64,000 bases of DNA from Dehalococcoidia bacterium (lineage in GTDB: Bacteria > Chloroflexota > Dehalococcoidia > Lucifugimonadales > VXLM01): NCBI GenBank assembly GCA_965220255.1, contig OZ244816.1:2376491-2440490 (forward strand), read 5' to 3'. The position numbers and the translations under genes are program-made. This document shows, one piece after another, positions 6,231 through 53,974 of this stretch (position 1 is the stretch's first letter; each line of letters begins with the position of its first letter). The notes under the pieces were generated by a model that worked only from the letters and a program-made list of their open reading frames with translations, made no database searches and was not told where the DNA came from.

Positions 6231-6276
6231 TGGCTCCGCGACTCCCTTCCCTTGGATGAGTGCCGCTCAACGCAGG

Positions 6277-37072: not shown

Positions 37073-37117
37073 GGGGATCGACTTCATAGTATTGAAGGGG
37101 CATGAGGCTATGACTTG

Positions 37118-37271
37118 GTAGGGGCGGGTTTGAAACCCGCCCAGTCTCGCTTATCCCCTCTCCCATACGCGGGCGAGGGCTGGGGTGAGGGTGAATGACC
37201 TAACAATAACCCCGTTCGCCCCAGTACCAAGTACAGGGGAAGCTCTGAGCCTGTCAAAGGGCAGGGTTCTC
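37118..37271 (+). repeat. Mosaic of three repeat families: B hairpin, CCCCTCTCCC/GGGGTGAGGGTG module and family A
   Basis: gtaggggcgggtttgaaacccgccc; tatcccctctcccatacgcgggcgagggctggggtgagggtg; ccccgttcgccccagtaccaagtacaggggaagctctgagcctgtcaaaggg. Sits between convergent genes. Confidence 0.7.
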
Positions 37272-37309
37272 CAAGAACACGTAGCTCCGGAGAACCCTCG
37301 AACCCCCTG

Positions 37310-38230
37310 CTAGTCCACAGTCTGGCTCTTCGAGCGAATCGACGACTCGAAGGCCGACATCTTGTTCAGCGGCAGGCGAGGCCACGTTCGCTTCCACGGG
37401 TCGGTGACGTTCACCGTCAGCAGACCGAAGTCGCCGATCTCCTCGGTAATCACGTCGCCGTGCTGGATGGGACCCAGCCCCACGTGGTTCGTGCCCGTCG
37501 CGATCACGTCACCGGCCTTCATCGTCGTGATCCACGTGATGAACTCTACGGTCTCCTCAACCGTTCGACCCATGTCGCTCGTGTTGTGGTCCTGCCGTGG
37601 CTCGCCGTTGACCCACAGCTTGATATCGAGATTCTGCGGATCGTCCACCTCGTCGGCCGTGACGATCACCGGCCCGAGCGGGCAGAAAGTGTCCCAGGAT
37701 TTGCCCCAGAAGAAGCTGCTGCCGCCATTGGGGTTCACGCCCCGCGCCGACACGTCCATGAAGTTCAGGTAGCCGAAGATATGACCACCCGCCTTCTCCG
37801 CCGGAACGTCGGTCGACGTCTTTCCGATAACCAGCCCAAGCTCCGCCTCGTGGTGGAAGTGGGGCACCGGCGCGTCCGGAAGCTCGACCGTGTCGCCGTC
37901 TCCGATCACCGCGCTCGGTGACTTCAGGAAGGCCTCCCGGTCGGTCGGAAACGGCAGCTTGCCGTTCTCGAGGTAGTTGCCCGCCATGCAGGCGATACGC
38001 GTCGGTTCCGGCAGCGGCGCTCGCAACCGCACGTCGGCGATCGGCACCCCCTCTAAGTTGGCCGCCGCGTCTTCCAGCTTGCTCCTGTAGTCGTCGAAAC
38101 GGTCGATCAGCCCACGCATCCACGTCTGCGCGTCGATATGCGGGATATCATCAATCACCCCCGACACGTCCACCACGTTGTCACCCCTCAGCACGCCCGG
38201 AGTGAAGTCGTTGAATAGTACCAGCCTCAT
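37310..38230 (-). CDS. Fumarylacetoacetate hydrolase (FAH) family protein
   Basis: HHEAELGLVIGK, GYLNFMDVSAR and FCPLGP are typical FAH-fold motifs. Confidence 0.85.
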   Translation of the reverse strand: MRLVLFNDFTPGVLRGDNVVDVSGVIDDIPHIDAQTWMRGLIDRFDDYRSKLEDAAANLEGVPIADVRLRAPLPEPTRIACMAGNYLENGKLPFPTDREAFLKSPSAVIGDGDTVELPDAPVPHFHHEAELGLVIGKTSTDVPAEKAGGHIFGYLNFMDVSARGVNPNGGSSFFWGKSWDTFCPLGPVIVTADEVDDPQNLDIKLWVNGEPRQDHNTSDMGRTVEETVEFITWITTMKAGDVIATGTNHVGLGPIQHGDVITEEIGDFGLLTVNVTDPWKRTWPRLPLNKMSAFESSIRSKSQTVD

Positions 38231-38403
38231 GTACCAATCTCCTTTTCGCTAGGTCTTTCAGCCGCGCGATTGTAGCACAGCCCCTTCGACACCGTCCAAG
38301 CGGCAGGAGCCTTCGTTGACATGCCGCCTCCACCACAATACCGTACTTTCAGGCTCAAGAGTCCACGCACAACCGACAATCCAGCTATAACCCACTCTGC
38401 CAC

Positions 38404-38949
38404 ATGATCCCCGACTGGCTCCCATACTTCCTTAACGGCCTCCTCCTCCTCGCCATTGCCTCCATCATCTACTACGGCGTCAGGCTCGGCATAACCCCCA
38501 TGCCGAGCTCCCGCAAAGCCGTAGCAACGTTCATCGACCTCATCCCTGATTCCACCGACGGCAGGATAGTCGACCTCGGTTCCGGCTGGGGTACGCTCGC
38601 CTATCCCATCGCCAGGCGCTTCCCCGACGCCTCAGTCATCGGCTGCGAGCTCTCGCCCATCCCTTGGATCTACTCGCGTCTCAAGGGCATTTTCGTCCGA
38701 CGCCCCAACCTCACACTCCACAGGCGGAGCGTCTTCGACGTCGATCTTACCGGTGTCGACGTGGTCGTCGTCTACCTGCACCCCGCTGCGATGAAGAAAC
38801 TCGCCCCCAAATTCGAGCGAGAGCTGCGTCCCGGAACCCTCGTCCTCTCCAACACATTCCCTGTTCCCACATGGGAAGCCACGGAGACCCACCACCTCGG
38901 CAAGTCCTGGTTTTCCACATCAAACGACATCTACGTCTACCGTGTTTGA
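38404..38949 (+). CDS. Class I SAM-dependent methyltransferase with an N-terminal TM helix
   Basis: Motif I IVDLGSGWGTL, then VIGCELSP. Confidence 0.7.
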   Translation: MIPDWLPYFLNGLLLLAIASIIYYGVRLGITPMPSSRKAVATFIDLIPDSTDGRIVDLGSGWGTLAYPIARRFPDASVIGCELSPIPWIYSRLKGIFVRRPNLTLHRRSVFDVDLTGVDVVVVYLHPAAMKKLAPKFERELRPGTLVLSNTFPVPTWEATETHHLGKSWFSTSNDIYVYRV

Positions 38950-39006
38950 CGATTGTGATGTAGCATAGCTACCCTAGTATCCAGGAAGCACAGGAGCGCT
39001 CTTCAG

Positions 39007-40737
39007 ATGTACGAGACCATATCGACCGACGTACTTATCATTGGCGGTGGAGGCGCGGGACTTCGAGCCGCCGTAGAGGCGCGTGACCACGGTGCGAGCG
39101 TGACCATGGTCGTCAAGGGCAAGTACGGAAACAGCGGCTGCACCCTGAACGTCGGCACCAGTGCCGTAGTGGGCCTCAACGGGCAGAACGGCGACTCCAA
39201 CATGTCCTCCATGTGCGACCTGGTCTCCTTCGGCGGATTCCTCGCCGACCAGAAGCTCGCAAAGATTCTCGTTGATGAGACCATGGAGCGTGTCCAGGAG
39301 CTCGTCGAGTGGGGCGTCGATTTCCAGCGCGAGGACGACGGAAGCGTCGCCCTCTATCGTTCCGCCGCGCACACCCACGTAAGGAACTTCACCCTGAAGC
39401 CGGGCGACAACGCGCGCCAGCACACCTATGGCGCTCCTCCGGGCTGGGCCATGATGGACGCCCTCATGGACCAGGCCGAAAATCGCGGCGTAACGGTCAT
39501 GGACGACGCCGTGCTCATTGACCTCCTGACGGCCGACGGACGCGTCGTCGGGGCTACGGTGCTCGACTGCCGCCGCAACGAGACACTCGTCGTCCAGGCC
39601 AAGACGACCATCCTCGCGACAGGAACCTACAGCCACATATTCGCTCCCACCACCGTCTCGCCCTTCGAGACCGGCGATGGACAGTGCGCAGCCTATCGCG
39701 TCGGCGCCGACCTCACCGGTATGGAGGCATCCCAGTTTGTCGCAACGTCCGTCGGCTTCCCGCCCGGCACGAGATTCCTCAACTCCGAGAACGAGGACTT
39801 CCTTCCGAAGTACGGCATTGACGACCCGCGCAACTTCGCCAAGGAACCGCTCACCTACGCCGTCTGGAAGGAGATCAAGGAGGGCAGGGGATTCAAGGGC
39901 GATAAGGTCATGCTCGACATGAGCGCTGCCTTCGAAAGAGAGAATATGCCGTGGTGGTTCATGGACTTGGTGAAGGAGCAGACCGAGAAGCGTGGCATTG
40001 ACCTGCGTCACGAGCCCGTTGCCTCCGAGCCGCGCGCGCATACGACGATCGGCGGCATCTCCATAAACGAGAAGTGCGAGACAACTGTTCCCGGCCTCTA
40101 CGCGTCCGGCGCGGTTGCCGGCGGGGTCTACGGTCATGCCAGGCCCGAGGGATACACATCCATGATAACCGTCGTCTTCGGACAGCGGGCAGGGCGCTAC
40201 GCCGCCGAGGAGGCTAATGCCATTGGCCACGTCTCCGTGGATTCCGAGCAAGTGGGGGCAAGCCTCATGGCCGCGTCGAACACAATCGACAACGCCGCCT
40301 CTGTGAAGCCCAGCGACATCAAGCGCAAGATCAAAGCCACGACGCGGCGCTACGCCTGGGTCATCAAGGACGAAGAAGGACTCACCAACGGCCTCTCCCG
40401 CATCCGGCAGATTCGCTCCGAGACCGGAAAGTTGAGAGCCCGAAGCGGGTACGATTGGGCTCGCGCATTGGAAGTCCGCAACCTGCTCCTGTCGGCCGAA
40501 CTGCACTTCATCGGTTCATTGGAGCGCAAGGAGAGCAGGGGAGCTTTCTTCCGCGACGACTACTCTGAGACCGACAACGTCAACTGGCTGAAGAACATCC
40601 TGTACAGGCAGGTCGGCGGCGAACTGGTGCTCGATTACGAGGCGCCCGACCTTCTGTACTGCGATCCCGCCACGCATAATGGGCGGCTCCAGTATCAGCC
40701 GATCTCCAACTACGGAACGCGGGCGGCAACCGTCTAA
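39007..40737 (+). CDS. FAD-binding oxidoreductase of the succinate dehydrogenase/fumarate reductase flavoprotein family
   Basis: DVLIIGGGGAGLRAAVEA, ILATGT, HTTIGGI, LYASGAVAGG and ESRGAFFRDDY. Confidence 0.8.
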   Translation: MYETISTDVLIIGGGGAGLRAAVEARDHGASVTMVVKGKYGNSGCTLNVGTSAVVGLNGQNGDSNMSSMCDLVSFGGFLADQKLAKILVDETMERVQELVEWGVDFQREDDGSVALYRSAAHTHVRNFTLKPGDNARQHTYGAPPGWAMMDALMDQAENRGVTVMDDAVLIDLLTADGRVVGATVLDCRRNETLVVQAKTTILATGTYSHIFAPTTVSPFETGDGQCAAYRVGADLTGMEASQFVATSVGFPPGTRFLNSENEDFLPKYGIDDPRNFAKEPLTYAVWKEIKEGRGFKGDKVMLDMSAAFERENMPWWFMDLVKEQTEKRGIDLRHEPVASEPRAHTTIGGISINEKCETTVPGLYASGAVAGGVYGHARPEGYTSMITVVFGQRAGRYAAEEANAIGHVSVDSEQVGASLMAASNTIDNAASVKPSDIKRKIKATTRRYAWVIKDEEGLTNGLSRIRQIRSETGKLRARSGYDWARALEVRNLLLSAELHFIGSLERKESRGAFFRDDYSETDNVNWLKNILYRQVGGELVLDYEAPDLLYCDPATHNGRLQYQPISNYGTRAATV

Positions 40738-40752
40738 CCGACTGGTCCGGTC

Positions 40753-41661
40753 CTACTGGTCTGTAGGTCGGCGGAAGCGGTTGATGTAGTCTTCATCGCC
40801 GGTTTCCGTTTGGTCCGCGACTTCGCTCGCGTCATCCGACGATTCAGCGGCGCTTGCCGGTGCGTCATCCGAGGCGCTTGCGCCTGTCCCATCCGAGCCG
40901 TCCTCCGACGAAGGCCTGTCACGGTAGCGGCTGGCCTGGATGTCCTCCAGCCGGCTCTGAAGGTCTTCCCCTTCGAGATGCCCGACAATGCTGCCGTCGC
41001 GCATCTCGTTCACCTGGTCGGCCATCGCCAGCAGCGTCGAGTCGTGCGTAGCGGCGACTACGGTGATGCCGTGTGTCTCCACCATCTCGCGGAACAGCCC
41101 GAAGATCGACTGAGCATTCGTAGAGTCCAACTCACCCGTCGGCTCGTCCGCCAGGATCAGGGGCGGCCTCGTGACGATCGCGCGAGCGATGGCGACCCTC
41201 TGCTGCTCACCGCCCGATAGCTCGTACGGACGGTGGTTCGCGCGCGGGACGAGGCCAACGATTCCCAGCGCCTCCCTCGTGCGTTCCTCCCGCTCTCGGA
41301 CCCCGTATCCCGAAATCCTCAGCGGCAATTCGACGTTCTCGAACGCTGACAGCAGCGGAAGCAGGCCGAACGCCTGGAATACGAAACCCACCTTATGACG
41401 GCGAATTTCCGTGAGCTCCTTTTCGCCCATCGCCGTCAGATCCTCTCCTTCGAAGAGGATCTTGCCGGATGTCGGTTTGTCGAGCCCGGCCATGAGGTTC
41501 AAGAGCGTCGTCTTGCCCGAGCCCGATCTGCCGACGAGCGCAATGAACTGGCCCGGCGGTACCTGCAGGGTCACGTCGTTGACCGCCGTGACCTGCTCCG
41601 CCCCCACGTCGTACACGCGGGAGAGGTTCTCAATGTCGATGATGACCTGTGAACTGCTCAT
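40753..41661 (-). CDS. ABC transporter ATP-binding protein (MacB/LolD/FtsE-type) with an acidic low-complexity C-terminal tail
   Basis: Walker [10 protein letters not shown], signature [14 protein letters not shown], Walker [10 protein letters not shown]. An ~80-aa Asp/Glu/Ser-rich tail follows. The start is coupled to the upstream ATPase stop (TAAGATG). Confidence 0.9.
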
Positions 41662-41662
41662 C

Positions 41663-42547
41663 TTATTCCTCTCCGGAAACGATGGTGACCTTGCCGTCCT
41701 CGACCTTCACCCTTGCTCGATCGCGGATCCTTACCTCGTCTAGGTACTCGCGTGGAAGCTGCACTCGCCCGGCTCCATCGACCAGCGTGTACTCTTCGAG
41801 CGGTGTCTCAATGTCCACTTCCCCAGTAATCTGCCGCTCGTAGGAATGCGCGCGCCTGACCTCCGTCGAGGTCTTCCCGTCTCGAATCATGACAACCCGT
41901 CCGACTTTGTAGGCGATGTCGCGGTCGTGCGTTACGATCACGATGGTCGTCCCCAGCTCGCTGTTCACCGACCCGAACAGGTCCAGGATCTCGCTTGCCG
42001 TCGCGTCATCCAACTCACCCGTCGGCTCGTCCGCAAGAAGTAGGGGAGGGTGGTTTGCCAGAGCGACCGCAATCGCGACCCTCTGCTGCTCGCCCCCGGA
42101 CAAGCGCTCCGGCGTGTGGTCAAGCCTGTGCCCCAGGCCCACAAGGTTCAGCAGGTCTTCCGATCGTTCCTGTCGTTCCTTCGGGGAGAGGCTCGTGAGC
42201 ATCATGGGCAGCGCCACGTTCTCGACGGCGCTCAAGTACGGGAACAGATTGCGGCTCGTCTGCTGCCACACGAACCCGACCTCATGACGACGATAGTCCT
42301 CTACCTCCCGACCTCCCATGCGAAGGAGATCACGGTCTCCGACTCGGACCTTCCCGGCTGAGGGAGTATCATATCCCGCGAGGATATTCAGCAGCGTAGT
42401 TTTCCCGCTGCCGCTCGCACCCACGACGGCGATGACCTCGCCTCGCGATACGACGAGATCCAGACCCCTCAGCGCTACAACTTCCAGGTCGGCGATCTTG
42501 TATATCTTGAACAGGTCTTCGCAGACGATGTAGTCTTCCGTTCTCAC
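41663..42547 (-). CDS. ABC transporter ATP-binding protein (MacB/LolD/FtsE-type) with a C-terminal AbrB/SpoVT-like extension
   Basis: Walker A GASGSGKTT, signature [14 protein letters not shown], Walker B LLLADEPTG. GTG at 42547 is preceded by GGAGGG. Alternative starts are ATG 42568 and GTG 42583. Confidence 0.9.
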   Translation of the reverse strand: MRTEDYIVCEDLFKIYKIADLEVVALRGLDLVVSRGEVIAVVGASGSGKTTLLNILAGYDTPSAGKVRVGDRDLLRMGGREVEDYRRHEVGFVWQQTSRNLFPYLSAVENVALPMMLTSLSPKERQERSEDLLNLVGLGHRLDHTPERLSGGEQQRVAIAVALANHPPLLLADEPTGELDDATASEILDLFGSVNSELGTTIVIVTHDRDIAYKVGRVVMIRDGKTSTEVRRAHSYERQITGEVDIETPLEEYTLVDGAGRVQLPREYLDEVRIRDRARVKVEDGKVTIVSGEE

Positions 42548-42569
42548 GTTTGGCCCTCCACGATTCATT

Positions 42570-45500
42570 CTAACCAATTTCACCCAACCGCAAGACCCGC
42601 TGCAGCGAGATGCGATTGACCAGCCATATCATTCCCAAGATTATCACGGCGAACACGAGGAACATAATCGCGTAAGTCAGGATAAGCACGTTCCAATTGA
42701 TCTGCATCGCGAACGGCGGCATCACCTGCGAACCGAAGTCGTCGTGTCCGAGGAATGGCATAATCACCGCGCCCAGTCTTCCGCCCATCCACGTTCCCAG
42801 CGCCAGTCCTACGAGAATCACCAGCATCTGCTCCAGCCATACCATCGTGACGAGCTGCCGCATGGAGAATCCCACCGTTCGCAGCAGGGCGAACTGGAGC
42901 TGTCTGTTTCTAAACGATATGTAGGCGTGCACGAGGAACCCCAAGCAGCTCAGTACCAGCACCGACGAGAAGGCGATGAACAGAAGCGATCTCCATCCCG
43001 CCTTCACGAGCGGGTCCACCTTCGACTCGGCCAGCAGGGCGTCCCTGTCTTGGAATGAGTCGATCAGAAATCCGCCGTTGGTGTTCAACTCCTCGATGAG
43101 CGCTGCTCGTTCTGCCCCCGTGGACGTCGATGAAATCCAGAGTTCGTTGGGCAGGACCTCGCTGTTCAATGTTCCCATGCTTGCATACTTCACGAGAGAA
43201 CTCATGTCAGAAACGAGGAAGCTCTTCTCCCGCAAATTCATCGTGGGGAAGAACTCCATCTCATCGATGATTCGCACGGGTACGCGATGTCCCGAGACCG
43301 AAACGTCGAATTCCTCGCCGACCTTATGGCCGGTATTCTTGTTGAATCCCTTGCTTGCGAGCACCGGTAGAGGAGTGAACTGACCGGGGAAAATGCCACG
43401 CACCGAGGCCGCCGCGCCCTCGGCCCATGAGAAGAGGGCCGACCCCGACTCGTCTTCGAATCCAACGTCGGACGCCCGGAGCACGTCTGCGATCGCGGTC
43501 TCGGTAGTCCGCAGAAGACTCCAGCCTTCCACGTCATTGAATGACTCGATAACGGTCGTCCTACCTGTCTCCGTCTTCGCCTTGATCTCATCTATCAGGA
43601 CGGATCCGGGTTGGAGTTGCCTGTCGCCTCGGCGCTCCCGGATGGTCACCGAGGCGAGGGAAATCGGCTCCGATGGAGCGGTTGACGGCTGCCCCCTTCC
43701 TCCGACCGCCGTCAGATCGACGCTAAGTTCCGCCCAGTCGGCGAAGTTCAGCTCACCGAGAACATAGGTGTAGTATCTGCCGCGAGAGTCTAATATCCGC
43801 GCTGTCATGCGGACGGATGGATGTGGCCGGTCCGGCTTGATTCTCAGAGTGAGATGCTTCGATCCGTTCGGAATGGGCAGCCCCTCCGGTCCGCCTTCGA
43901 GGGCCAGTGAGGAAATTAGTTCGTCCACGGGTTGCCCGGCGAAGTCTTCTCGGAACCAGGCAACATCCAGAAAGTCCTCCGGGTTGACCGCCACCATGTC
44001 GTAGGTGCCGCCGAATAGCTTGGAAAGGTCGTGCCCCGAACTCCTGCGAACGAGACTGACCTTCTCAACTCCGAGGAGGTTCTCATATCGGTCCTTCAGC
44101 ACACTCGTGGACATGAACTGGTCGTCTGGAGATAGACCCCGCCGGAACCCTGAGGTGGGAACGTTTCCGTTGAGCCGTACGTCGCTTCCGGTGAAGAAGA
44201 GCACCCGCTCGACGAAGCTGCGGTCGAGCGTCGCGCTGAAGCTCGCCGCGAAGATTCCCAGCCCTGCCGTCAGAATCAGCAACAAGGACAGTCGGGCGTA
44301 GTGCGCCGGGTTTCGCGCCATCTGCCAGACTCCCATAACCATACCCGCCGGCAGCCACGCGGAAAGTAGGCGGCTTGCAAGGTTCATCACAACGGGGAAC
44401 AGCCGCAAGAGCACCATCGCCGACGCCACCAGTATTATCCCCGGCACCGCCAGCAGCATCTGGTTCACCGCGATTTCTCCGAACAGGTTCCTGGCCACTA
44501 CCGAACCCTGTTCGGTCAACTGTCGGAACAGCAGGATTCCCACGATGAGCAGCAATACGTCGAGATAGTACCTCTGGACAAACGGCAAGTCGGTCGGTCT
44601 GGCCGACCTTTGACGTTCTTGGGTCACGCTCATTTGAGACGCTCTGAACGCCGGGAATATCAGGGCAACGAAGCTCAAGACACCGCCCAGCGCAGCCATC
44701 ATGTAGGCACCGCTTGAAAGGCTGACCGACAGGAGACCGTCGGCGCCCAGATCGGAAAACGCCGGCGTCACGCCCAGCACGCTGATGGCCAACGCCGCCA
44801 GAATGGGACCGAATATCACGGACAACGCAGCGATCGTCAGTCCTTCCATGACGAATACCATGAGAATCTGCGTCGAGTTGGCCCCCCGGCTTCTCAGCAG
44901 GGCAACCTCGTTCCGTCGGTCTTCCACAACCAGCGATGACAACGTGGCGACGTAATACAGGATCACGATCGCGATTAGCACCAACACAACGAACATCGGC
45001 AATTTGCTGAAGAACAAACGCCTGTCGTACTCGTCGAGTGCGTTGTCCAGGGTCGTCGTCTGTCGGAAGCTAGATAGCGTGGAACTCAGCAGCGCATTCG
45101 TTCCCCTGATGTCCAACAGCGTGGAGGTGCTGTTTCTGGCATTGACTCGGTCGGCATCGGTCATCAGGAGCCATGCGTAGGTGGCTTCCATCCTCCGGAG
45201 TCGAGGTCCCAAGGTCTCAAGGAACGCCTCTTCGGATATATGGAAGGGCATCGTCCTGAAGCTGGTGCCGGTCGCTGCTTCAAGGACTTCTCTCTCAAGC
45301 TGCCAGACCTCTGCCTCAGGGTCCTCGCGTTGGAAGATGGCGCTGATCACCACTTCTACGTGGGCGAGGTCATCCGACCACGGCAGCACCGCGGACACCC
45401 GGTCTCCTATGCGTGTACCGAATGTCTCCGCTGCCTCGACCGGAATCATCGCCTCTATGGTGAATGGTTCTCCGGGCGCGTTTACCGGGCTGACGCCCGG

Positions 45501-45953
45501 GGCGACACCTCCCCGGATAACGATGTGTTGCTCGATGTTGGGAACATAGGCGAAGTACGTCCTGGCGTTGTCGTCGCCCGCAACGGCCTCGTCGCCGGTT
45601 GCCGTAAGGAACATCGTGGGAGTCTTTGCCGCGCTTAGCCTGCCCTCGACGAGCCAGTTTAGTCTGTCCCAAACGACTTGATTCACGACCCCCGAGACTC
45701 GATCGGCCTCTTCACGATTCACCGGGCCCCTCTGCCCCTGCATGATGATGTGCAGTTCGGCTTCGGAGTGCTGGTCCAGCGCGCTGCGCAGCGCTATCTC
45801 CCTGAGCGCGTCGAAATAGATCACCGTTCCCGACATGATTGACGACGCCAACAGCACGCCAAGGACGACCGAAGACAACAGTCGCCAGTGGGCCAGGCTG
45901 CGCTTCAGTACAAACTGCCAAGCGGAAATGAACCGCTGTACGGCTGAGACCAT
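42570..45953 (-). CDS. Very large ABC permease with two FtsX (MacB-type) domains and two large extracytoplasmic domains
   Basis: 1127 aa. FtsX signatures RRNEVALLRSRGANSTQI...MEG and RQLQFALLRTVGFSMRQL...LEQ, each preceded by a long soluble segment bounded by TM helices. Confidence 0.85.
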   Translation of the reverse strand: MVSAVQRFISAWQFVLKRSLAHWRLLSSVVLGVLLASSIMSGTVIYFDALREIALRSALDQHSEAELHIIMQGQRGPVNREEADRVSGVVNQVVWDRLNWLVEGRLSAAKTPTMFLTATGDEAVAGDDNARTYFAYVPNIEQHIVIRGGVAPGVSPVNAPGEPFTIEAMIPVEAAETFGTRIGDRVSAVLPWSDDLAHVEVVISAIFQREDPEAEVWQLEREVLEAATGTSFRTMPFHISEEAFLETLGPRLRRMEATYAWLLMTDADRVNARNSTSTLLDIRGTNALLSSTLSSFRQTTTLDNALDEYDRRLFFSKLPMFVVLVLIAIVILYYVATLSSLVVEDRRNEVALLRSRGANSTQILMVFVMEGLTIAALSVIFGPILAALAISVLGVTPAFSDLGADGLLSVSLSSGAYMMAALGGVLSFVALIFPAFRASQMSVTQERQRSARPTDLPFVQRYYLDVLLLIVGILLFRQLTEQGSVVARNLFGEIAVNQMLLAVPGIILVASAMVLLRLFPVVMNLASRLLSAWLPAGMVMGVWQMARNPAHYARLSLLLILTAGLGIFAASFSATLDRSFVERVLFFTGSDVRLNGNVPTSGFRRGLSPDDQFMSTSVLKDRYENLLGVEKVSLVRRSSGHDLSKLFGGTYDMVAVNPEDFLDVAWFREDFAGQPVDELISSLALEGGPEGLPIPNGSKHLTLRIKPDRPHPSVRMTARILDSRGRYYTYVLGELNFADWAELSVDLTAVGGRGQPSTAPSEPISLASVTIRERRGDRQLQPGSVLIDEIKAKTETGRTTVIESFNDVEGWSLLRTTETAIADVLRASDVGFEDESGSALFSWAEGAAASVRGIFPGQFTPLPVLASKGFNKNTGHKVGEEFDVSVSGHRVPVRIIDEMEFFPTMNLREKSFLVSDMSSLVKYASMGTLNSEVLPNELWISSTSTGAERAALIEELNTNGGFLIDSFQDRDALLAESKVDPLVKAGWRSLLFIAFSSVLVLSCLGFLVHAYISFRNRQLQFALLRTVGFSMRQLVTMVWLEQMLVILVGLALGTWMGGRLGAVIMPFLGHDDFGSQVMPPFAMQINWNVLILTYAIMFLVFAVIILGMIWLVNRISLQRVLRLGEIG

Positions 45954-46099
45954 TCCATCTCCCTTATACTGTGGGTCCCGCTAAGTCCTATCCCCACCGC
46001 TCGGATTGTAGCTGAATCGCCCCGGCGAGAAAAGTTTACTGCCTATTAGTACGCCCGTGACTCTCTAAAGTTACTATCCGTTCGATTCATGCCGGCGGT

Positions 46100-49000
46100 C
46101 TATGCCTCGCCGCTGCGTGCCAGTTCAAACAATTTCGTCTTGCCGATTGATCGATAGAGAATAAACATTACCGTTACGAATATCGCCAGGATCATTCCGT
46201 ATGTCGGAAGCATCAACGTCCAGTCGGTAACGAGAATGAACGGCGGCACTATCGACTGCCCAATGTCCGACACCGCCAGTGGCGCGACCATGAGTCGGCT
46301 CATCTGGAAGCCTGCCCAAGTCCCAACCCCAAGGCCAAGCGCCACAACGGTCAAGTGTTCAAAGCTGAGTAGTCCAAGAAGCTGAATCTTCGACAGGCCA
46401 AGCGACTGGAGGAATCCCATCTCGTGCTTGTTGCTCTCGCCCACCAGGAGCATGTACGCCACATAACCGAAAATCGCTGCCAGCAGCACTACTCCCAACG
46501 CCATGAACACAAGGGCCCTCCAACCGGCGTTCTGCAGCGGGTCTCTGCGAATCTCCTCCCTCTGCTCCGTGGTGTCGTTCACCTTGAGGAGGATCCTCTC
46601 CATCTCCTGAGAGATCTCCTCGACGATCTCCGGCGCTTCTCCTGTCTTCCTGAGATACAGTTCATTCGGGACGACGGATGAAAGCTGGCTCATCATGTTC
46701 ATGTACTCCAGCAGGGCATCGATGTCGGCCAGCATGAATCCTGAGTTCGCCGTATTGAGCGTTGGGAAGAGGTCGATCACTCCTTTGATCTCGATGGGGA
46801 CCAGCCAGCCCGAGACGCTCACAATTTGAGATACTCCAGGCCGCAAGCCCGTCGCCTCGGAGACGTCACGGCTGATGACTGCGGGAATTACGCCTCTGCC
46901 CGCGGCCTCGTATATCCCTCGTACAGATCGGTTTCTGTCTGTTCCGAAGGTGAAGACGCCGGCCCGTCTTCCCTCGTAAGGGTCGTCGGCCGCAGTGTAG
47001 AGAACGTCCGAATTAAAGAAGTTCGTGGGTATCGGCGACCAGACATTGGTTCCCTCGAACCCCTCCAATACCACCTCCGAGCCGTCCGAAAGGACCACGT
47101 AAACATTGTCGAACAGCACCGTTCCGGGCGTTCCCCCGCCCGAGGTCTGTGTTGTGGTTCCGGGCTCGTACAGCGATACCGCCATGAGGTTGAGAGGCCT
47201 GACTAGGTCATCGGGCAGGACGGTGCTCGCACTATGCCAATCGAGACTGCCCACATCTCCAAGGGATATGGTATTGACCTTGCCTTCTGCGTCTCGAATC
47301 ACCACCCAAACGGACATCAGAGGCTGCGGTTCAAGCGGCTTGATCCACAGACCGATGCTCTCCGAGTCCGCCGGGAGTGTGATTCCCCCCTGTTTGCCAG
47401 GCACTGCGATCAAGTCCATGATCTCTTCCAGTTCCAGGTCCGCGAAATCGTTGCGGAACCATGCGATCTCGGCGAACGCCTTAGGTTCCAGTGCCAAGAG
47501 CTGCATACTTACGCTGCCAAGTGACGCGCTTGACCGGTATCCGAGCGCTCCGCTGTCTATCGCCGGCGTCTCCACGAATTCCTCCAGCATGCCCGGAAGC
47601 CCCTTCTTCAGAAACAGCGGTGTGCCCTGGATTCGCATGTCGGTTGGAGTGCCGAACTGGATCTGTTCGTCCTGGCTGCGAGTCAGCGTGCCCCCCACCG
47701 TGGTCGCAAAGATACCGAGGCCCGTTACCAGCACAAGGAGGAGCACCAGCCACGTGTACTGCAGCGGATTTCGGGCCATGTGCCACAGGCTGATGGAAAG
47801 CCACGCAGGGGCCGATCGGATAACAAGCGAGAGCAGTTGGTACAGAACTTGGCCCGGCACAATTGCCAGGAGTCCGATCTCCGCGACGAAGAGTGGGTTG
47901 GACGGTTGAATATCCCCAGTGAGTACGTACCCCGCGATCGGAGCCGTCTGGACGGCCATGCCTGCCCATATCCACTTTCCATTGAGGTACCGCGAAGTTA
48001 CGTAGTAGGCTCCGCCGACTGCCAATGCGAGGGCCGCTGGCACGTATGCCTCGGAGACCATCCCGTCCTGGTAGCTCAGGAAGAGTGAGCCACCCGCCAG
48101 TGCCACAACGGAGAATCCCGCGATCAGATGAATGAGCCCGCGCGACTCACCGCCAATGTAGCGGACGAACAGGGGAAACAGCCGCATGAAGAATAAGGCA
48201 ACCACGATGAGAAAGAGGATCGGGCCAAACAGCAGCGTCTCGTTGACCTGGAGTTGGGTGAACAGGCCGCTCGAAACGATCTGCTCCCTGCTCTGAAGCT
48301 CCCAAAATACCAGCCCTCCGACGGCCACGAGCCCTACGTCGAGATAGTACCTGTGAAAGAACGACATGGTCGCCGGTCTTGCCGCCTTGACCCTTTGTAC
48401 GAGCAGACCACTCCTTGCGCCGGCTGCCCCGAAGGCCACGTACAGGAAAAGACACAGCATAGCCACTCCCGCGCCGATAGCGAAGGAGAGTGGATCAGCC
48501 CTGACTAGGAGAAGCTCGCCCCCGGTAGTAGCTCGAAACGGAGGCATGAGCCCGATCAGGGCAATCGTCGCAAAGGAGATCAGGGGTCCCAAGATGAATG
48601 CCAGCAGGCACATCACGACGCCCTCGATCGAGTAGAGTCGCAGAAGTTCGGAGATTCCAACCCCCCGCGTCCGCATTAGCGCCGAGTCCCGCTCTCTGCT
48701 CTTCGCTAGGTAGGAGACCATCATCGTCATGTAGAACAGCACCGTGACGACCATGATCGTAAGCAGGAAGAGCAGGGGAATCCTCGAGAAGAACACCCGC
48801 CTCCCAACGTTTGCGATCAGCCCGCGAACCGTTCCTGAGCTAACGGTCGCGCCGACAATCGAATTGTAAATGTCGTCTTCAAGCAGATCCAAGCGGTGGA
48901 TGAATCCGGCTGCTGTCCAACTGCTCAGCTTTTCCTTATCGATCTTTCCAAAGACGATGGGATTGACCAGCGTCCTCTCGTATGCGGGCCCAATGGCGTC

Positions 49001-49792
49001 CGTCAAGACCTCGATACGAACGAAGAGGCCGATTGCCAGGTTCTGGTTTTCGTCCCACAACACACCGTCGGGCGGCGGGAATCCCGATTCCTCGCCACCC
49101 TGCGCCGGTCTGGATTGGGAGGTGAGCACGAGCGCAGCCATCGACCAGAACTCGTCCGAGAGATCGTCGGCTTGAAAGACCCCCACGATATTTACCGTGA
49201 TCCTCGTTTCCACGAACGCGTCCACGGCCACGACGACCGAGTCTCCGACGCCAAGTTCCGAATCATCGGCCACCTGTTCCGATATCACCGCTTCAACCGT
49301 TATCCCGTCGGAAGTCTCCGCAACCTCCGTGCTTGGCGCCCGACCATCTACGAAGACCGATCGATTTTGGAAGTTGGTCAGGGTGTGAAAGAACCCGTCC
49401 AAGACCACAGGAAGGGACTCTTGGTCGCCTACGGCCGGCAGAGGCAATTCATCCGTCCCTACGATGGACGCGGTGCCCCTGAGGTACATCTCCTGTCCCG
49501 CGTACAGGTCCTCGATATGCTCCGTAGCTATCGAATGGACGAGTTGGTCCAGTTCGTCCACGGCCTCTGTTGTAAGGGGAATGCGCTTGGCGAAGACGCT
49601 CAGGTTGAGCTGGGGCGCGGGAATCTGGTTGAGTGACACCCGAAAAGCCAGCTGTTCAAGGGCGGTGAGGTATACCGTCGACCCCACACTGATCGTCACG
49701 GCGACAAGTATGCCGATGAACACGCTCGAAAGGAGCTTCCACTCGTCCAACAGTCGATTGGACACGAGTCGTGCGTTCGTTAGTTTGCGCAT
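46100..49792 (-). CDS. Very large ABC permease with two FtsX (MacB-type) domains, extra central TM helices and two large extracytoplasmic domains
   Basis: 1230 aa. FtsX signatures RERDSALMRTRGVGISEL...IEG and NKHEMGFLQSLGLSKIQL...FEH. Confidence 0.85.
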   Translation of the reverse strand: MRKLTNARLVSNRLLDEWKLLSSVFIGILVAVTISVGSTVYLTALEQLAFRVSLNQIPAPQLNLSVFAKRIPLTTEAVDELDQLVHSIATEHIEDLYAGQEMYLRGTASIVGTDELPLPAVGDQESLPVVLDGFFHTLTNFQNRSVFVDGRAPSTEVAETSDGITVEAVISEQVADDSELGVGDSVVVAVDAFVETRITVNIVGVFQADDLSDEFWSMAALVLTSQSRPAQGGEESGFPPPDGVLWDENQNLAIGLFVRIEVLTDAIGPAYERTLVNPIVFGKIDKEKLSSWTAAGFIHRLDLLEDDIYNSIVGATVSSGTVRGLIANVGRRVFFSRIPLLFLLTIMVVTVLFYMTMMVSYLAKSRERDSALMRTRGVGISELLRLYSIEGVVMCLLAFILGPLISFATIALIGLMPPFRATTGGELLLVRADPLSFAIGAGVAMLCLFLYVAFGAAGARSGLLVQRVKAARPATMSFFHRYYLDVGLVAVGGLVFWELQSREQIVSSGLFTQLQVNETLLFGPILFLIVVALFFMRLFPLFVRYIGGESRGLIHLIAGFSVVALAGGSLFLSYQDGMVSEAYVPAALALAVGGAYYVTSRYLNGKWIWAGMAVQTAPIAGYVLTGDIQPSNPLFVAEIGLLAIVPGQVLYQLLSLVIRSAPAWLSISLWHMARNPLQYTWLVLLLVLVTGLGIFATTVGGTLTRSQDEQIQFGTPTDMRIQGTPLFLKKGLPGMLEEFVETPAIDSGALGYRSSASLGSVSMQLLALEPKAFAEIAWFRNDFADLELEEIMDLIAVPGKQGGITLPADSESIGLWIKPLEPQPLMSVWVVIRDAEGKVNTISLGDVGSLDWHSASTVLPDDLVRPLNLMAVSLYEPGTTTQTSGGGTPGTVLFDNVYVVLSDGSEVVLEGFEGTNVWSPIPTNFFNSDVLYTAADDPYEGRRAGVFTFGTDRNRSVRGIYEAAGRGVIPAVISRDVSEATGLRPGVSQIVSVSGWLVPIEIKGVIDLFPTLNTANSGFMLADIDALLEYMNMMSQLSSVVPNELYLRKTGEAPEIVEEISQEMERILLKVNDTTEQREEIRRDPLQNAGWRALVFMALGVVLLAAIFGYVAYMLLVGESNKHEMGFLQSLGLSKIQLLGLLSFEHLTVVALGLGVGTWAGFQMSRLMVAPLAVSDIGQSIVPPFILVTDWTLMLPTYGMILAIFVTVMFILYRSIGKTKLFELARSGEA

Positions 49793-50043
49793 CTCTTACA
49801 GCGGGACAACAGCGTTCCGAATGCTCCGGAAAACGCCTGCCAAGCGAGCACACGGATGCCCCATGTGGATCTAGTCACTGATGTGCTCGGCGGAGGGATT
49901 CTGGGCGATACTGTCTTCTCAGAAGCATCATTTATTTGGGCACCTACACATATAGTACAAACGAGACGGTCAAGAGGTTGAGGTGCATTATACTCCATGC
50001 GTAATTCGTCTGGGTTCTCGGAAGGGCGATGCCCTCAGGCATG

Positions 50044-51426
50044 TCAGCCACCTCGGCTCTCCTCGGCAAGGAGCCGCGCCACCTCCTGTCTCATGAATTC
50101 CTGCACGGCTTCCACTAACTCATCCGACGTGTTGCCGATGACTCTCGACTCCAGGCCATGATCGCCGAACCCGAATTGCAGCTCGTGCCGAACGTGACGC
50201 TCCGGCCCGTCGTAGTAGTATGGCCGGTTCCCTCGCAGGTTCTCATGGATGTCGGGGTCGTCCGCATCCGTGCGGTAGATTATCGGATTCGCCATCACCA
50301 CCTGTGGCACGTCCGACCCATACTCGACCGGCCGAGTCTTCACACGGAAGTCTCCAAGCATCGTCTCGTCGGTAATCTCCGGTGCCCACATCGTCATTGA
50401 ATACGTTTCGCCCCGTTCTACCCATGGGCGTATCTTCCTCTGCACCTCCACGAAGGCATACCACCTCTTGATCTCCGGGAAGTGGTTGGAAGCGTGGGGC
50501 ATCTTGTCCTCGTATTTCGACACGTCGCCTCCCGCCCGAAGGTCGTTGAACGCGATGAACCAGTTCGCGTAGTCTCTCGCCCCCCGCGACATTCGCATCA
50601 CCAACCTGTCCTTGCCCTGTCCCACGTTCCGCGCGTCGACGACGATCACATGCGGCATCTCGCTGCTGAGGTACCGAATCGTTCCACGGTCCGGACCTGC
50701 GCGGACTCCCGATCTCAGGATCATGTTCGGCACCGTCAGGCGAGTCGACCTGTGGGAAGGCACGCGGGGATACACGATCGTGAAATCGTCCTTGAGATGC
50801 TCCTCCAGCGGCTCGACTCCCCACTGCCTTCCATACCGGTCGTTGCCAATGATGACTATCGGTCGTGTTGTCTCCTCGCGGAATTTCAAGAGGAATCTCA
50901 GTAGCGTATACGCCTCGTATGCCACCCTCCTCGCCTCTACGAGGTTCTGCCCGTCGAGAACGAACTCTTCGTACGTCTGCGGACCGAGCAAGGGCAGCTT
51001 TATGAACTCATCGTAGGGAGCACTGGTATATGGGTCGAAGTCGGGCTTGATCTCCTCGTGATAAGCCCAGTTGAACCTGTGGTATTCGAGGTCGCGCTCC
51101 ACCTCATTGCTGGGATCGAAGCGACCCACTCTCGTGTTCTTTCGAAGCCGGTCGATCTCCGCCAGCTTGTCGTCGAGAGCCCCCGGCTGAACGAGATAGT
51201 CCTTCAGAACCGGCGTCAGGGTCACGCCGTCGTGATTCTGCCGGTTGACCCAACCGTGCCACTCCGCCAATCGCTCCAGGTCGTCGGTCGCCTCGTCAAC
51301 AGAACGATCACTGAGGAAAGATTCTATCCACGCTTCATCAAATTCAAATCCGTACCGGCGAATACTGCCATTGCTCTCTTCGTTCAAACGATCGACAACG
51401 GATTGGATCTCGGCTATTTTGCTCAT
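50044..51426 (-). CDS. Hypothetical soluble protein, no recognisable family
   Basis: 460-aa ORF with host-like GC and codon usage. No signal peptide or TM. No motif I can name. Confidence 0.6.
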   Translation of the reverse strand: MSKIAEIQSVVDRLNEESNGSIRRYGFEFDEAWIESFLSDRSVDEATDDLERLAEWHGWVNRQNHDGVTLTPVLKDYLVQPGALDDKLAEIDRLRKNTRVGRFDPSNEVERDLEYHRFNWAYHEEIKPDFDPYTSAPYDEFIKLPLLGPQTYEEFVLDGQNLVEARRVAYEAYTLLRFLLKFREETTRPIVIIGNDRYGRQWGVEPLEEHLKDDFTIVYPRVPSHRSTRLTVPNMILRSGVRAGPDRGTIRYLSSEMPHVIVVDARNVGQGKDRLVMRMSRGARDYANWFIAFNDLRAGGDVSKYEDKMPHASNHFPEIKRWYAFVEVQRKIRPWVERGETYSMTMWAPEITDETMLGDFRVKTRPVEYGSDVPQVVMANPIIYRTDADDPDIHENLRGNRPYYYDGPERHVRHELQFGFGDHGLESRVIGNTSDELVEAVQEFMRQEVARLLAEESRGG

Positions 51427-51520
51427 CTCGTCTCCACGCTCGAGGTGTTGGCGACAATACCCTATGCCATTGCGCTGCAGCTTTCTACCCTAACGGAACC
51501 GAATACGGCCCCGAACGTGT

Positions 51521-51730
51521 ATGATTCACACCGAACCGAGCTCGACATGGAGGACGCTCGTGACACTCTACTGGATATTCGTAGGACTCTTCGTATTCTC
51601 AATTGCCATTTTCACCTTTGCCGTCTTCACGGCGAACGTCTCCCTGGGCGCCCTCGGTGTAATCATAGTCTTCCTCCTCTACCTGTTCCGACGCTGGTTT
51701 CTGCCGGAATCTCCGGATGACACCAAATAG
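51521..51730 (+). CDS. Candidate small two-TM membrane protein
   Basis: 69-aa ORF with two hydrophobic helices (LVTLYWIFVGLFVFSIAIFTFAVF and LGALGVIIVFLLYLF). Confidence 0.3.
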   Translation: MIHTEPSSTWRTLVTLYWIFVGLFVFSIAIFTFAVFTANVSLGALGVIIVFLLYLFRRWFLPESPDDTK

Positions 51731-51849
51731 TGAGAGTCGGTAGGGCACAACAGGTCCGATGACCTGGCTGCAACTGCCGAACCGGCTGCCCGAATTTTCA
51801 TTGACGAAGCAACCTTGTGCGTGCTAGCCTTATACTTGCGTAACATTCG

Positions 51850-52187
51850 AATACTTGAAGTATGCGTCGAAGGGGAGTAGTAACGGGAAGCGCACGATAG
51901 AGAACGGGGTATTTTGGTGGAAGCCCCGGCGTGACAGCGACCGCGAACTCGCCCCCGAGCATCCTGCTTGATACCGGACATCGCATCAGGTGTGATTCCG
52001 ACATAGGGCAGGGCGGTCAGGCCCCGTTACGGCCCGGCTCCACGGAGCCATGAGTGTCCTCCAAGCACCCACACAGGGTCTCTCCCCCAAAGTGAGAGAT
52101 ATGGACATGGGTCGGAGGGAACGAGGGTGGTACCGCGGGAATTGTCTAATCAGCAGTCCCGTCCCTTTGGTGGGACGGGACTTTTTG
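51850..52187 (+). promoter_or_regulatory. T-box leader (tRNA-sensing riboswitch), probable Leu (CUC) specifier, controlling the ilv-leu operon
   Basis: Stem I elements: GAAGGGGAGTAGTA, AG bay AGAGA at 51899-51903 and distal loop TGGTGGAAG. Candidate specifier GAA-CTC-G has CTC at 51948-51950. The conserved T-box sequence GGGTGGTACCGCG lies at 52125-52137, and a terminator follows directly. Confidence 0.75.
52155..52187 (+). terminator. Intrinsic terminator of the T-box leader
   Basis: An 11-bp perfect stem agtcccgtccc / gggacgggact with loop tttggt, followed by TTTTTG. Confidence 0.8.
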
Positions 52188-52243
52188 CTTAGTACGACAG
52201 AACGGTGGAAGAAAATACTCCGAGCAAGGGAGGTGCGAAGATC

Positions 52244-53974
52244 ATGGGAATCCGACTGAATGGATCACAGTTACTGTGCGAAAGCCTAGTACGTGAGGGC
52301 GTCGTAGAGATCTTCGGTCTTCCCGGCGGAGCAATCCTGCCTCTCTACCAGACCCTGCCGGAGTACCTGCAGCTCCGACACATCCTGACTCGTCATGAGC
52401 AGGGAGCCGCCCACGCCGCCGACGGTTACGCCCGCGTAACCGGCAGAGTAGGCGTATGCTGGGCCACGTCCGGCCCCGGAGCCACCAACCTCATAACCGG
52501 CATCGCGACCGCCCAGATGGATTCCGTCCCTGTCGTCGCCGTCGTCGGACAGGTGGCGCGCGCCTCCATCGGGACCGACGCCTTCCAGGAAACCGACACC
52601 ACAGGCATCACTCTCCCCATCACCAAGCACAATACGCTGGTGATGGATCCCATAGAGATACCGCAGGTGGTCAAGGAGGCTTTTCACATCGCCAACACCG
52701 GCAGGCCCGGCCCTGTCGTCATCGACGTGCCCAAGGATGTGCAGACCGAGGAGGTTGAGCTTCCCTACGAGACGTTCGATGAGTACTACGAAGCCCTGGA
52801 GATCGACCTGCCCGGCTACAAGCCGAACCTGAAGGGCCACAACAGCCAGATCAAAAAGGCCGTCAATCTGATAGAAGAGGCCGAACGGCCTGTCATCCTA
52901 GCCGGTCACGGTATCGTCTTCTCCGGGGCGTATGAAGAGTTGCGCGAACTGGCTGAGAAGGCGCAAATTCCGGTCATAACGACCCTGCTCGGCATAAGCT
53001 CGTTCCCCGACGATCACATCCTTTGTGTCGGTATGCCGGGAATGCACGGCATGGCCTACGCCAGCATCGCCATCGAGGAGGCCGACCTGCTCATAGCCCT
53101 CGGCATGCGCTTCGACGACCGAATCACCGGCAAGCCGAGCGCCTTCGCTCGGAGGTCCAAGAAGATTCACATCGACATCGACCCCTCCGAAATCGGCAAG
53201 AACGTCGAGGTCGACGTACCTATCGTGGGAGACCTCAAACGTGTGCTGACGAAGCTCAACCCGCAGGTCAGCGAAAACACCCACACCGAATGGCTCCAGC
53301 GCATCGAGGAACTCAAGGCGGAGCATCCTTCTCACAACATTCGCGACGCGAACCAACTCCTGCCGCAGCTCATCGTCAAGGAGCTGTCCGAGGTTACGGA
53401 AGGCGACGCCATCGTCGTGACCGGCGTCGGCCAGCACCAGATGTGGGCCGCCCAGCACTTCACCTACAAGTACCCCTGCTCCTTCATCACGTCGGGCGGC
53501 TCCGGCGCGATGGGCTACGAGGTGCCCGGCGCGATGGGCGTACAGGTCGGCGCGCCCGGCAAGGCCGTATGGTCGGTTGCGGGAGATGGTGGATTCCAGA
53601 TGACCATGTGCGAATTAGCCACCATCGTCGAGAACCGTCTGCCCGTGAAGTTCGCCATCATCAACAACAACGTGCTCGGTATGGTCCACCAGTGGCAGGA
53701 ATTCTTCTACGACAAGAGCTACGTTGCCACGGCCTACACCGCGAACCCTGACTTCGTGAAGCTCGCCGAGGCCTTCGGAATCAAGGCCATGCGCGTCACC
53801 GACAAGGTGCAGGTGCGAGGAGCCATCGAAGAGGCTATGGCGCACGACGGACCCGTAGTCATCGACTTCATCGTCGAGGAAGAGGAGCGCGTCTATCCCA
53901 TGATCAAGGCGGGAGGCACCATCGAGGACCTCGTCGAGGAACCCGACTTCGCCCCGTGGGAGGTGGCACGATGA
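52244..53974 (+). CDS. ilvB: Acetolactate synthase (acetohydroxyacid synthase) large subunit
   Basis: ThDP-enzyme pattern: FGLPGGAILPLY, HEQGAAHAADGYAR, GPGATN, and the ThDP motif GDGGFQM...NN. ATG at 52244 is preceded by AAGGGAGG. Confidence 0.95.
   Translation: MGIRLNGSQLLCESLVREGVVEIFGLPGGAILPLYQTLPEYLQLRHILTRHEQGAAHAADGYARVTGRVGVCWATSGPGATNLITGIATAQMDSVPVVAVVGQVARASIGTDAFQETDTTGITLPITKHNTLVMDPIEIPQVVKEAFHIANTGRPGPVVIDVPKDVQTEEVELPYETFDEYYEALEIDLPGYKPNLKGHNSQIKKAVNLIEEAERPVILAGHGIVFSGAYEELRELAEKAQIPVITTLLGISSFPDDHILCVGMPGMHGMAYASIAIEEADLLIALGMRFDDRITGKPSAFARRSKKIHIDIDPSEIGKNVEVDVPIVGDLKRVLTKLNPQVSENTHTEWLQRIEELKAEHPSHNIRDANQLLPQLIVKELSEVTEGDAIVVTGVGQHQMWAAQHFTYKYPCSFITSGGSGAMGYEVPGAMGVQVGAPGKAVWSVAGDGGFQMTMCELATIVENRLPVKFAIINNNVLGMVHQWQEFFYDKSYVATAYTANPDFVKLAEAFGIKAMRVTDKVQVRGAIEEAMAHDGPVVIDFIVEEEERVYPMIKAGGTIEDLVEEPDFAPWEVAR

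Follow-up and report, generated by a model that had tools for sequence, protein, structure and literature searches.

Two fused FtsX-type permeases and two distinct ATPases form a conserved four-gene module, very probably of the type VII ABC class, in Dehalococcoidia and SAR202

ATP-binding cassette (ABC) systems of type VII, such as MacB, LolCDE, FtsEX, BceAB, and YbbAP, are machines of the cell envelope whose mechanical work takes place outside the membrane: their substrates are not carried through the bilayer, and stalk helices relay the closure of the nucleotide-binding domains (NBDs) to ectodomains at the outer face. To our knowledge, every characterised type VII system has a single NBD species and one pair of membrane units. 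A 2018 review of the MacB family gives the known permutations as the homodimer, the LolCE heterodimer, and the BceB- or YbbP-type fusions. YbbAP(-TesA) of E. coli is a type VII ABC system (PDB 9GE6, 9GE7, and 9GE8) with 10 transmembrane (TM) helices, two ectodomains, and mechanotransmission, whose permease YbbP has two linker helices, Porter/Sabre ectodomains between TM1-2 and TM7-8, and two coupling helices (PMC12646458). Here, we analyse a four-gene module in a 64,000-nt stretch of contig OZ244816.1 (hereafter the window, to whose full length all window coordinates refer) that encodes two such fused permeases and two NBD paralogues, a combination that is not among the permutations in the 2018 review. 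A preliminary description of the stretch, made from the letters alone, had allowed that the locus might fall into a characterised family with exactly this layout; literature and profile searches found no characterised family or paper with it. The subunit composition and a domain appended to one of the NBDs are new for the type VII class, and the family is uncharacterised.

The four open reading frames (ORFs) are co-directional on the minus strand within 40753-49792 of the window, in the order permease A (PA), permease B (PB), ATPase A (NA), and ATPase B (NB), with the sizes, positions, and spacing that had been described:

46100..49792, minus strand: PA, 1230 amino acids (aa), fused double-FtsX ABC permease, very probably type VII, with ~14 predicted TM segments
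45954..46099, minus strand: PA-PB spacer, 146 nt
42570..45953, minus strand: PB, 1127 aa, fused double-FtsX permease with 10 TM helices, YbbP-like, with homologues of ~1100-1140 aa
41663..42547, minus strand: NA, 294 aa when started at the codon-13 GTG, LolD/MacB-type NBD
41663-42583, minus strand: longest ORF of NA, 306 aa from the first GTG
40753..41661, minus strand: NB, 302 aa, LolD/MacB-type NBD

A single nucleotide separates the NA stop from the NB start, while the PB stop either overlaps the start of NA (first GTG) or precedes it by 22 nt (GTG at codon 13); the latter is likely the real start because GGAGGG precedes the codon-13 GTG and nearly all orthologues of NA have a length of 294 aa. 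Base composition across the module is ordinary for the window. Both permeases are intact in 12 close relatives, and full-length orthologues of both extend down to ~26% identity, so that a pseudogene or frameshifted-duplicate permease, the other way in which the locus might have proved trivial, was ruled out. The four genes are real and intact, and the membrane ATPase machine that they encode is conserved widely across Dehalococcoidia and SAR202.

As had been read from the ORFs, each permease has two FtsX domains: Pfam FtsX (PF02687) matched two stretches in each, and the two stretches together give the whole proteins 42.9 and 54.9 bits (cut-off 25.5). PA and PB align collinearly over their whole length at 26-28% identity and are ancient paralogues; in each, two FtsX units are fused in YbbP fashion, with two linker helices between TM1-4 and TM7-10. 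From hydropathy and an AlphaFold2 model (built on a 57-sequence alignment; mean predicted local distance difference test, pLDDT, 81.4), PB consists of an N-terminal elbow helix, TM1, ectodomain 1 of ~270 aa, TM2-4, and linker helices TM5-6, followed in the second half by a second elbow helix, TM7, ectodomain 2 of ~415 aa, and TM8-10. In the model, the alpha/beta ectodomains occupy residues ~61-300 and 590-975, with long helices on both sides. The two large ectodomains expected of each permease are thus present, and they and their insertions lie as follows:

48773-49678, minus strand: PA ectodomain 1, residues ~39-340
47828..48154, minus strand: PA-specific insertion, residues ~547-655 (~108 aa), after TM6 and ahead of the TM7 elbow helix
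46517-47692, minus strand: PA ectodomain 2, residues ~701-1092
44997-45812, minus strand: PB ectodomain 1, residues ~48-319
42987-44234, minus strand: PB ectodomain 2, residues ~574-989
43368..43904, minus strand: all-beta insertion in PB ectodomain 2, residues 684-862 (~175 aa), a beta-sandwich in which Trp, Gly, and Asp residues are conserved

A Foldseek search of the PDB with the PB model returned E. coli YbbP as the best match (9ge6_A/9ge7_A; E 2.6e-16), aligned over ~1135 columns and essentially the full chain, at a sequence identity of ~12%. The next matches were BceB, MacB, LolC/E, YtrF, and HrtB, all of these and YbbP at a probability of 1.00, and the PB ectodomains gave local matches to LolE and MacB periplasmic domains in isolated form (5udf and 3ftj). 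PDB sequence searches with PA and PB gave matches to the FtsX helices only. The PB ectodomains, as modelled, are therefore of the MacB/LolCE/YbbP-type (Porter/Sabre) fold on stalk helices, which corrects the earlier statement that the ectodomains could not be recognised; only the ~175-aa beta-sandwich in ectodomain 2 has no assignment. Modelled alone, this insertion reached a pLDDT of 89.6 and a predicted template-modelling score (pTM) of 0.85, and Foldseek against the PDB found nothing better than E 3e-3; FlaA1, a sheath protein of spirochaetes, resembles it weakly, as do PLAT domains and jelly-roll/CBM folds, and there is a weak Pfam match to FlaA. PA has an equivalent of this region in the PA/PB alignment.

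PA is further distinguished by the insertion after TM6, where hydropathy gives four hydrophobic segments (residues 552-572, 581-598, 609-624, and 632-655). Their columns are 100% occupied in 21 A-type homologues, with hydrophobic peaks in the family-averaged hydropathy, and because of this full conservation we predict ~14 TM helices for PA, in agreement with the extra central helices noted at the outset. A related observation comes from another locus (L019 9001-12666), which encodes in the B position a B-like protein of 1221 aa (P0112), ~95 aa longer than a typical PB (~1127 aa). When P0112 is aligned to PB, the match is interrupted around TM6-TM7, the site of the four extra hydrophobic segments of PA, and the TM6-TM7 linker may be a hot spot for gaining extra helices.

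Each ATPase has a single Pfam ABC_tran domain, and the two are 47% identical, both with intact canonical Walker A, Q, signature, Walker B-Glu, D, and H-loop motifs. The top NCBIfam models for both are LolD, YbbA, FtsE, and MacB (E 1e-53 to 1e-68), with scores below every equivalog cut-off, and across the module proteins the best-scoring NCBIfam and PDB sequence matches are LolC, LolE, LolF, and LolD. NA has a conserved 2-residue insertion right after the Q-loop glutamine (WQQTxRNL, vs FQxxG--L in NB), at a site beside the Q-loop that belongs to the permease-contacting surface. NA orthologues are 77-84% identical where PB orthologues are ~55% identical. Pfam, the PB model, and its Foldseek match to YbbP together uphold the preliminary description's central point: with two FtsX domains, either permease is by itself a full transmembrane unit, so that the locus has double the component set of a MacB-type transporter, and two distinct NBDs. 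With FtsX four-helix units, MacB-type ectodomains on stalk helices, and LolD/MacB/FtsE-type NBDs with intact motifs, the module very probably belongs to the type VII (MacB/FtsX-fold, mechanotransmission) class.

Both ATPases also carry C-terminal extensions:

41666..41797, minus strand: AbrB/SpoVT-like C-terminal domain of NA, ~40 residues of the swapped-hairpin type after a ~25-residue linker
40756..40977, minus strand: acidic tail of NB, residues ~229-302, Ser/Asp/Glu-rich and clade-specific

The NA C-terminus has the motif EE[FY]xL[VI]DxxG[RS]VQ[IL]PR[ED], and its likeness to the AbrB N-domain extends to the VDxxGRVxIP hairpin motif. It aligned to the AbrB N-domain with 92% probability over 36 columns in hhalign; in a PDB profile search its top six matches were AbrB/SpoVT at marginal E values (0.04-0.06), with MraZ lower, and Pfam hmmscan of the isolated C-terminus (64 residues) found nothing. 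NCBI/PGAP labels fragments of it AbrB/MazE/SpoVT. We consider the domain AbrB-like with moderate confidence, as had been suspected from the letters, and it occurs in every NA orthologue examined, the most distant clade included. A protein-database search with its profile brought up nothing but pieces of NA, cut by frameshifts or contig ends, and no other domain-bearing families. We know of no described precedent for an AbrB-like domain on one of two paralogous type VII NBDs, and literature searches returned none for such an NBD. Many Chloroflexota mini-proteins of the "AbrB/MazE/SpoVT family" (L107 8426-9318; P0445-P0480) are NA fragments, an annotation artefact and not stand-alone regulators. 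The acidic extension of NB had been described alongside; it is present in the window but is not a family feature, as the NB orthologues in L018-L025, beyond the close relatives, are 233-241 aa long and lack it.

The closest genomes are Dehalococcoidia metagenome-assembled genomes, several of them from sponge or marine sources, which confirms the probably monoderm Chloroflexota-type host proposed earlier; Dehalococcoidia are monoderms (PMC10284905). The whole neighbourhood is syntenic in these close relatives, which are therefore mute on functional linkage. The PB family comprises 1353 representative clusters (50% identity) at E <= 1e-30; the best 150 of these are nearly all 1100-1240 aa long, down to ~26% identity, and every taxonomically named family member is from Chloroflexota, either Dehalococcoidia or SAR202. 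The order PA-PB-NA-NB recurs with different flanking genes at PB identities of 52%, 49%, 32%, and 26%, and loci with this order and unrelated flanks include L018, L019, L020, L021 (a 1.96-Mb circular genome), L023, L025, and L107. Reciprocal BLAST gave stable A and B orthology groups for permeases and ATPases alike, so both duplications are old.

A profile-seeded scan of metagenome contigs added 80 more loci. A second fused permease lay directly upstream of PB in 49 of the 53 testable survey loci, and downstream of PB, among 64 testable loci, both NBD genes were present in 44, neither in 20, and a single one in none. The complete four-gene set was found in 28 of the 44 survey loci with both flanks testable, which answers the question of co-occurrence raised by the preliminary description: the four genes recur as a set. 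Besides the 20 survey loci, pairs of PA and PB without adjacent NBD genes occur at L016 and L022, and the 5.57-Mb contig of L016 also carries a complete module (L023); some genomes have at least two PB paralogues, e.g., P0049 and P0105 on one 3.0-Mb contig. In the four survey loci without an upstream permease (L086, L087, L088, and L103), all that is left of PA is its last 53-67 codons, with unrelated minus-strand genes in its place (upstream of PB, ~3000-7000), while PB, NA, and NB are intact. These loci represent three diverged lineages (PB 73-77% identical), and because their PB proteins have diverged by 23-27% from one another, this PB-NA-NB variant is stably maintained.

The apparent PA-PB gap was 7-153 nt in 45 of the 49 loci, with a ~2.76-kb insertion in the other four. 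Insertions of this size lie in the spacer of L047, L048, and L075 (~4250-7000) and disrupt neither permease, and at L016/L017 7558-8928 an insertion sits exactly in the spacer, in L016 a gene for a 456-aa HTH_32-type transposase, likewise with both permeases uninterrupted. The PA-PB spacer seems to be a tolerated insertion site.

We propose that the module is a type VII system in which NA and NB pair as a heterodimer and power either fused permease, a shared engine for work at the outer face. Taken whole, this reading has in our view an even chance of being right; the heterodimer step on its own is likewise finely balanced. We infer here the heterodimer, the shared engine, the coupling of units, the direction of work, and the substrate class. 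As a complete membrane unit with two coupling helices, each permease needs two ATPase subunits, and NA and NB would heterodimerise such that one NBD docks on each of the non-identical permease halves. One NA/NB engine would serve PA, PB, and further PA-PB pairs elsewhere in the genome that have no ATPase genes of their own. ATP-driven NBD closure would act through the long stalk helices on the ectodomains and perform work at the outer face of the cytoplasmic membrane. As the type VII mechanism leads one to expect, a molecule that is hydrophobic or lipid-anchored would, for example, be extracted or expelled from the outer leaflet; import would not be expected, and the beta-sandwich-bearing ectodomains would set specificity. 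The AbrB-like domains would probably pair two NA subunits and couple a PA-NA-NB unit with a PB-NA-NB unit, or alternatively serve as a regulatory clamp. Such a joining of two transporter units is speculative; under the heterodimer model, it would be the reason why PA and PB stay together.

The comparative data lean toward a shared A/B ATPase pair over two independent homodimeric transporters because the two NBD genes occur as a pair or not at all (single in 0/64), because the one-permease variant keeps both of them, because NBD-less permease pairs exist alongside complete modules, because NA and NB differ at the permease-contacting Q-loop region, and because the coupling sequence in one half of a permease is unlike that in its other half. 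We also count the high conservation of NA relative to PB for the shared engine.

Several points weigh against this proposal. All characterised type VII systems, YbbAP and BceAB included, have NBD homodimers, and both module NBDs are fully canonical, with no degenerate-site signature of an obligate heterodimer. The AbrB fold normally exists only as a dimer, and its presence on NA would be most simply satisfied by an NA2 homodimer under one permease; pairing of NA C-termini across two transporter units could bring the heterodimer model into line with this fold. The coupling-helix regions, compared between the N and C halves of PA and PB, differ within one permease, and each resembles its counterpart in the paralogue; they group by position, as common descent predicts, and do not discriminate the NA2/NB2 model from the NA/NB model. 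The genomes of the PA-less loci could carry PA elsewhere, which would weaken that natural experiment, and the survey was seeded with a PB profile, with which PA-only modules would be missed. The substrate class is purely conjectural, and the beta-sandwich is without a confident fold match.

The strongest alternative, which we regard as unlikely while taking it seriously, is that two independent transporters stand side by side, one permease with NA2, whose AbrB-like barrel would lie under the NBDs as in MalK or MetN, and the other with NB2, with related but distinct substrates. NBDs are homodimeric in all solved type VII systems (e.g., YbbA2-YbbP and BceA2-BceB), an obligate-dimer fold is found on only one of the two NBDs, and the parallel A/B paralogy of permeases and NBDs fits the duplication of a permease-NBD pair. 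In YtrBCDEF of B. subtilis, two NBD genes serve different permeases in one operon, a precedent for two transporters, and the YtrEF structure (9o9x) is among the Foldseek matches of PB. Set against this are a gene order of PA-PB-NA-NB and not PA-NA-PB-NB, the lack of any single-NBD locus among the 64, the retention of both NBD genes in PA-less loci across 23-27% PB divergence, and the many PA-PB pairs without any NBD genes; dissimilar coupling regions in each permease would also be awkward for two copies of the same NBD, though YbbP and BceB manage.

An obligate supercomplex of all four products (PA-PB-NA2-NB2 or similar), with four FtsX units, a joint ectodomain chamber, and an AbrB-like barrel tying the halves together in the cytoplasm, would account for the adjacency of PA and PB in 49/53 loci and in every independently sampled context, even with the NBD genes elsewhere, as well as for a dimer-only fold on one NBD type, and the very strong conservation of NA suggests many simultaneous contacts. 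We nevertheless think it rather improbable: the persistence of PB-NA-NB without PA makes PA dispensable in at least some lineages, higher-order type VII assemblies have no precedent, and insertion sequence elements lie between PA and PB in some loci with no apparent loss of either gene. BceAB-like sensing or detoxification of, or MacB-like efflux against, antimicrobial peptides, to which the JGI automatic name "antimicrobial peptide transport system permease" and the 10-TM topology common to BceB would point, is very unlikely, given that no histidine kinase/response regulator pair or membrane-fusion adaptor adjoins the module in the window or in >10 independent contexts, that each permease has two ectodomains vs one in BceB, that YbbP is the better structural match, and that the JGI names stem from generic COG transfer. 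The likelihoods attached to these models overlap where the models do.

The shared-engine proposal can be carried further, to a first type VII system with a heterodimeric ATPase, built as a dimer of fused transporters joined at the cytoplasmic side by the swapped-hairpin barrel of NA, with one engine for several interchangeable PA-PB pairs within a genome and lineage-specific beta-sandwich ectodomains that, in wall-less marine Dehalococcoidia, would act on lipids of the envelope or on molecules associated with the S-layer; we find this full picture doubtful. An exotic extension would have the AbrB-like barrel also bind DNA or a regulator and couple transporter state to gene expression. The caution of the preliminary description, which left the choice between two transporters and a hetero-assembly undecided and assigned no function, was justified.

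Across the window and the same >10 contexts, no gene for a solute-binding protein, adaptor, two-component system, kinase, or hydrolase was consistently linked to the module, and the roles in cell-wall hydrolase activation and BceAB-type sensing suggested earlier are accordingly disfavoured. Neighbours vary, and include penicillin amidase, transglutaminase with MoxR, and metabolic enzymes; beside the module, in the window and the related loci inspected, there was no esterase or lipase gene, and such a partner could be encoded elsewhere. DUF3179 proteins adjoin the module in four otherwise unrelated loci (L016 1-1899; L019 3744-5042, minus strand; L025 16939-17589, minus strand; L032 152-1036), the L019 copy having an N-terminal membrane anchor, and are candidate extracytoplasmic partners; the 64-kb window has no DUF3179 homologue. 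Directly upstream of PA, after a gap of ~250 nt, 50044-51426 on the minus strand encodes a 460-aa predicted cytoplasmic protein with no Pfam, NCBIfam, or PDB relative. In L016/L017 and L032, though not in most other modules, a homologue (~41-43% identity) takes the corresponding place upstream of PA, and the protein may be a lineage-specific accessory or a mere neighbour.

The module is otherwise flanked by ordinary metabolism (35990-40737 and 51058-53974), with products that include a Zn-dependent alcohol dehydrogenase, an FAA hydrolase, a small methyltransferase, a flavin adenine dinucleotide (FAD)-binding SdhA/FrdA-like flavoprotein, and a thiamine pyrophosphate-dependent acetolactate-synthase-like enzyme; the ORF at 51058-51720 on the plus strand has no Pfam match. 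At L019 16384-20476, ~2 kb downstream of the module, are three tandem archaeal-type flagellin (PF01917) genes, consistent with archaellum clusters reported in Chloroflexota (PMC12488501).

For transcription, one element of the PA-PB spacer stands out:

46005-46011, minus strand: CTACAAT box, invariant with its flanking bases among seven close relatives, the rest of the spacer being variable

Judged by this conservation, the box may be an internal promoter (-10 element) for PB-NA-NB. It was not called in a generic sigma-70 scan, and a sigma-70 promoter and terminator scan of 40500-50300 gave counts not above those of shuffled sequence; in other lineages, only a few nucleotides lie between PA and PB. 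Rfam found nothing in the whole window, and PADLOC gave only generic P-loop/LolE-TM matches and no defence-system assignment.

To the type VII class, the module would add a paired fused-permease architecture and probably a first heteromeric NBD pair, and to the ABC field an AbrB-like domain on an ABC ATPase. Its family is large and old, and there are often several copies per genome. In the dark ocean and in sponges, Dehalococcoidia and SAR202 rank with the most abundant bacteria, yet little is known of the biology of their envelope; many of these lineages have an S-layer and no peptidoglycan. The identity of the substrate would help to show how these monoderms build or defend their surface.

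Measured against other ABC systems, the module is excluded from several families. MacAB membership was rejected, as was FtsEX membership, the latter because the ATPases score 193.5 and 216.1 bits against the FtsE model TIGR02673 (cut-off 264.85) and the permeases are fused and 1100-1230 aa long, whereas FtsX is a single four-TM unit. LolCDE resembles the module in having two different FtsX-type membrane units with LolD-like NBDs and Porter/Sabre ectodomains, but LolC and LolE have one four-TM unit apiece and combine with LolD2 into one transporter, each module permease alone corresponds to LolC plus LolE, and LolCDE serves an outer membrane where the module's host is monoderm; with 22-47 bits against 362 for lolCE (TIGR02212), 221-228 bits against 307.75 for LolD, and fused permeases, membership was rejected. 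The ADOP permeases of Acidobacteria (TIGR03434) are likewise duplicated FtsX permeases, often without an adjacent ATPase gene, and in this recall the NBD-less PA-PB pairs. They are ~800 aa long, and we know of none that occur as A/B pairs; PA alone matches the model, at 21 bits against 622.3.

BceAB shares with the module a fused 10-TM FtsX-type permease, a monoderm host, and a separate NBD gene, but BceB has a single ectodomain (TM7-8), BceA is a homodimer, and the system is tied genetically and physically to a two-component system (BceRS); two ectodomains per module permease, and no kinase or regulator gene near the module in the window or the related loci inspected, set the two apart. For the appended domain of NA, the nearest analogy lies in MalK, MetN, and ModC, in which a C-terminal domain is expected to dimerise beneath the NBD pair and may hold or regulate the dimer; these are importer ATPases with TOBE or NIL/ACT-like folds, whereas NA has an AbrB/SpoVT-like swapped hairpin and belongs to a system very probably of type VII.

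YbbAP is the closest system, although the module ATPases score 203 and 191.8 bits against the YbbA equivalog NF007879 (cut-off 336) and so fall outside it. One permease and one NBD gene make up YbbA2:YbbP1, with the TesA esterase as partner, where the module has two permeases, two NBDs, and no linked esterase; the module permeases are 320-430 aa longer than YbbP, with the beta-sandwich in ectodomain 2 and, in PA, the four extra TM segments, and the AbrB-like C-terminal domain of NA is a further difference. PB shares with YbbP the fused permease topology and the fold, the NBDs are of the LolD/YbbA type, and the mechanism of YbbAP, mechanotransmission with extraction of hydrophobic molecules from the outer leaflet, is probably common to the module.

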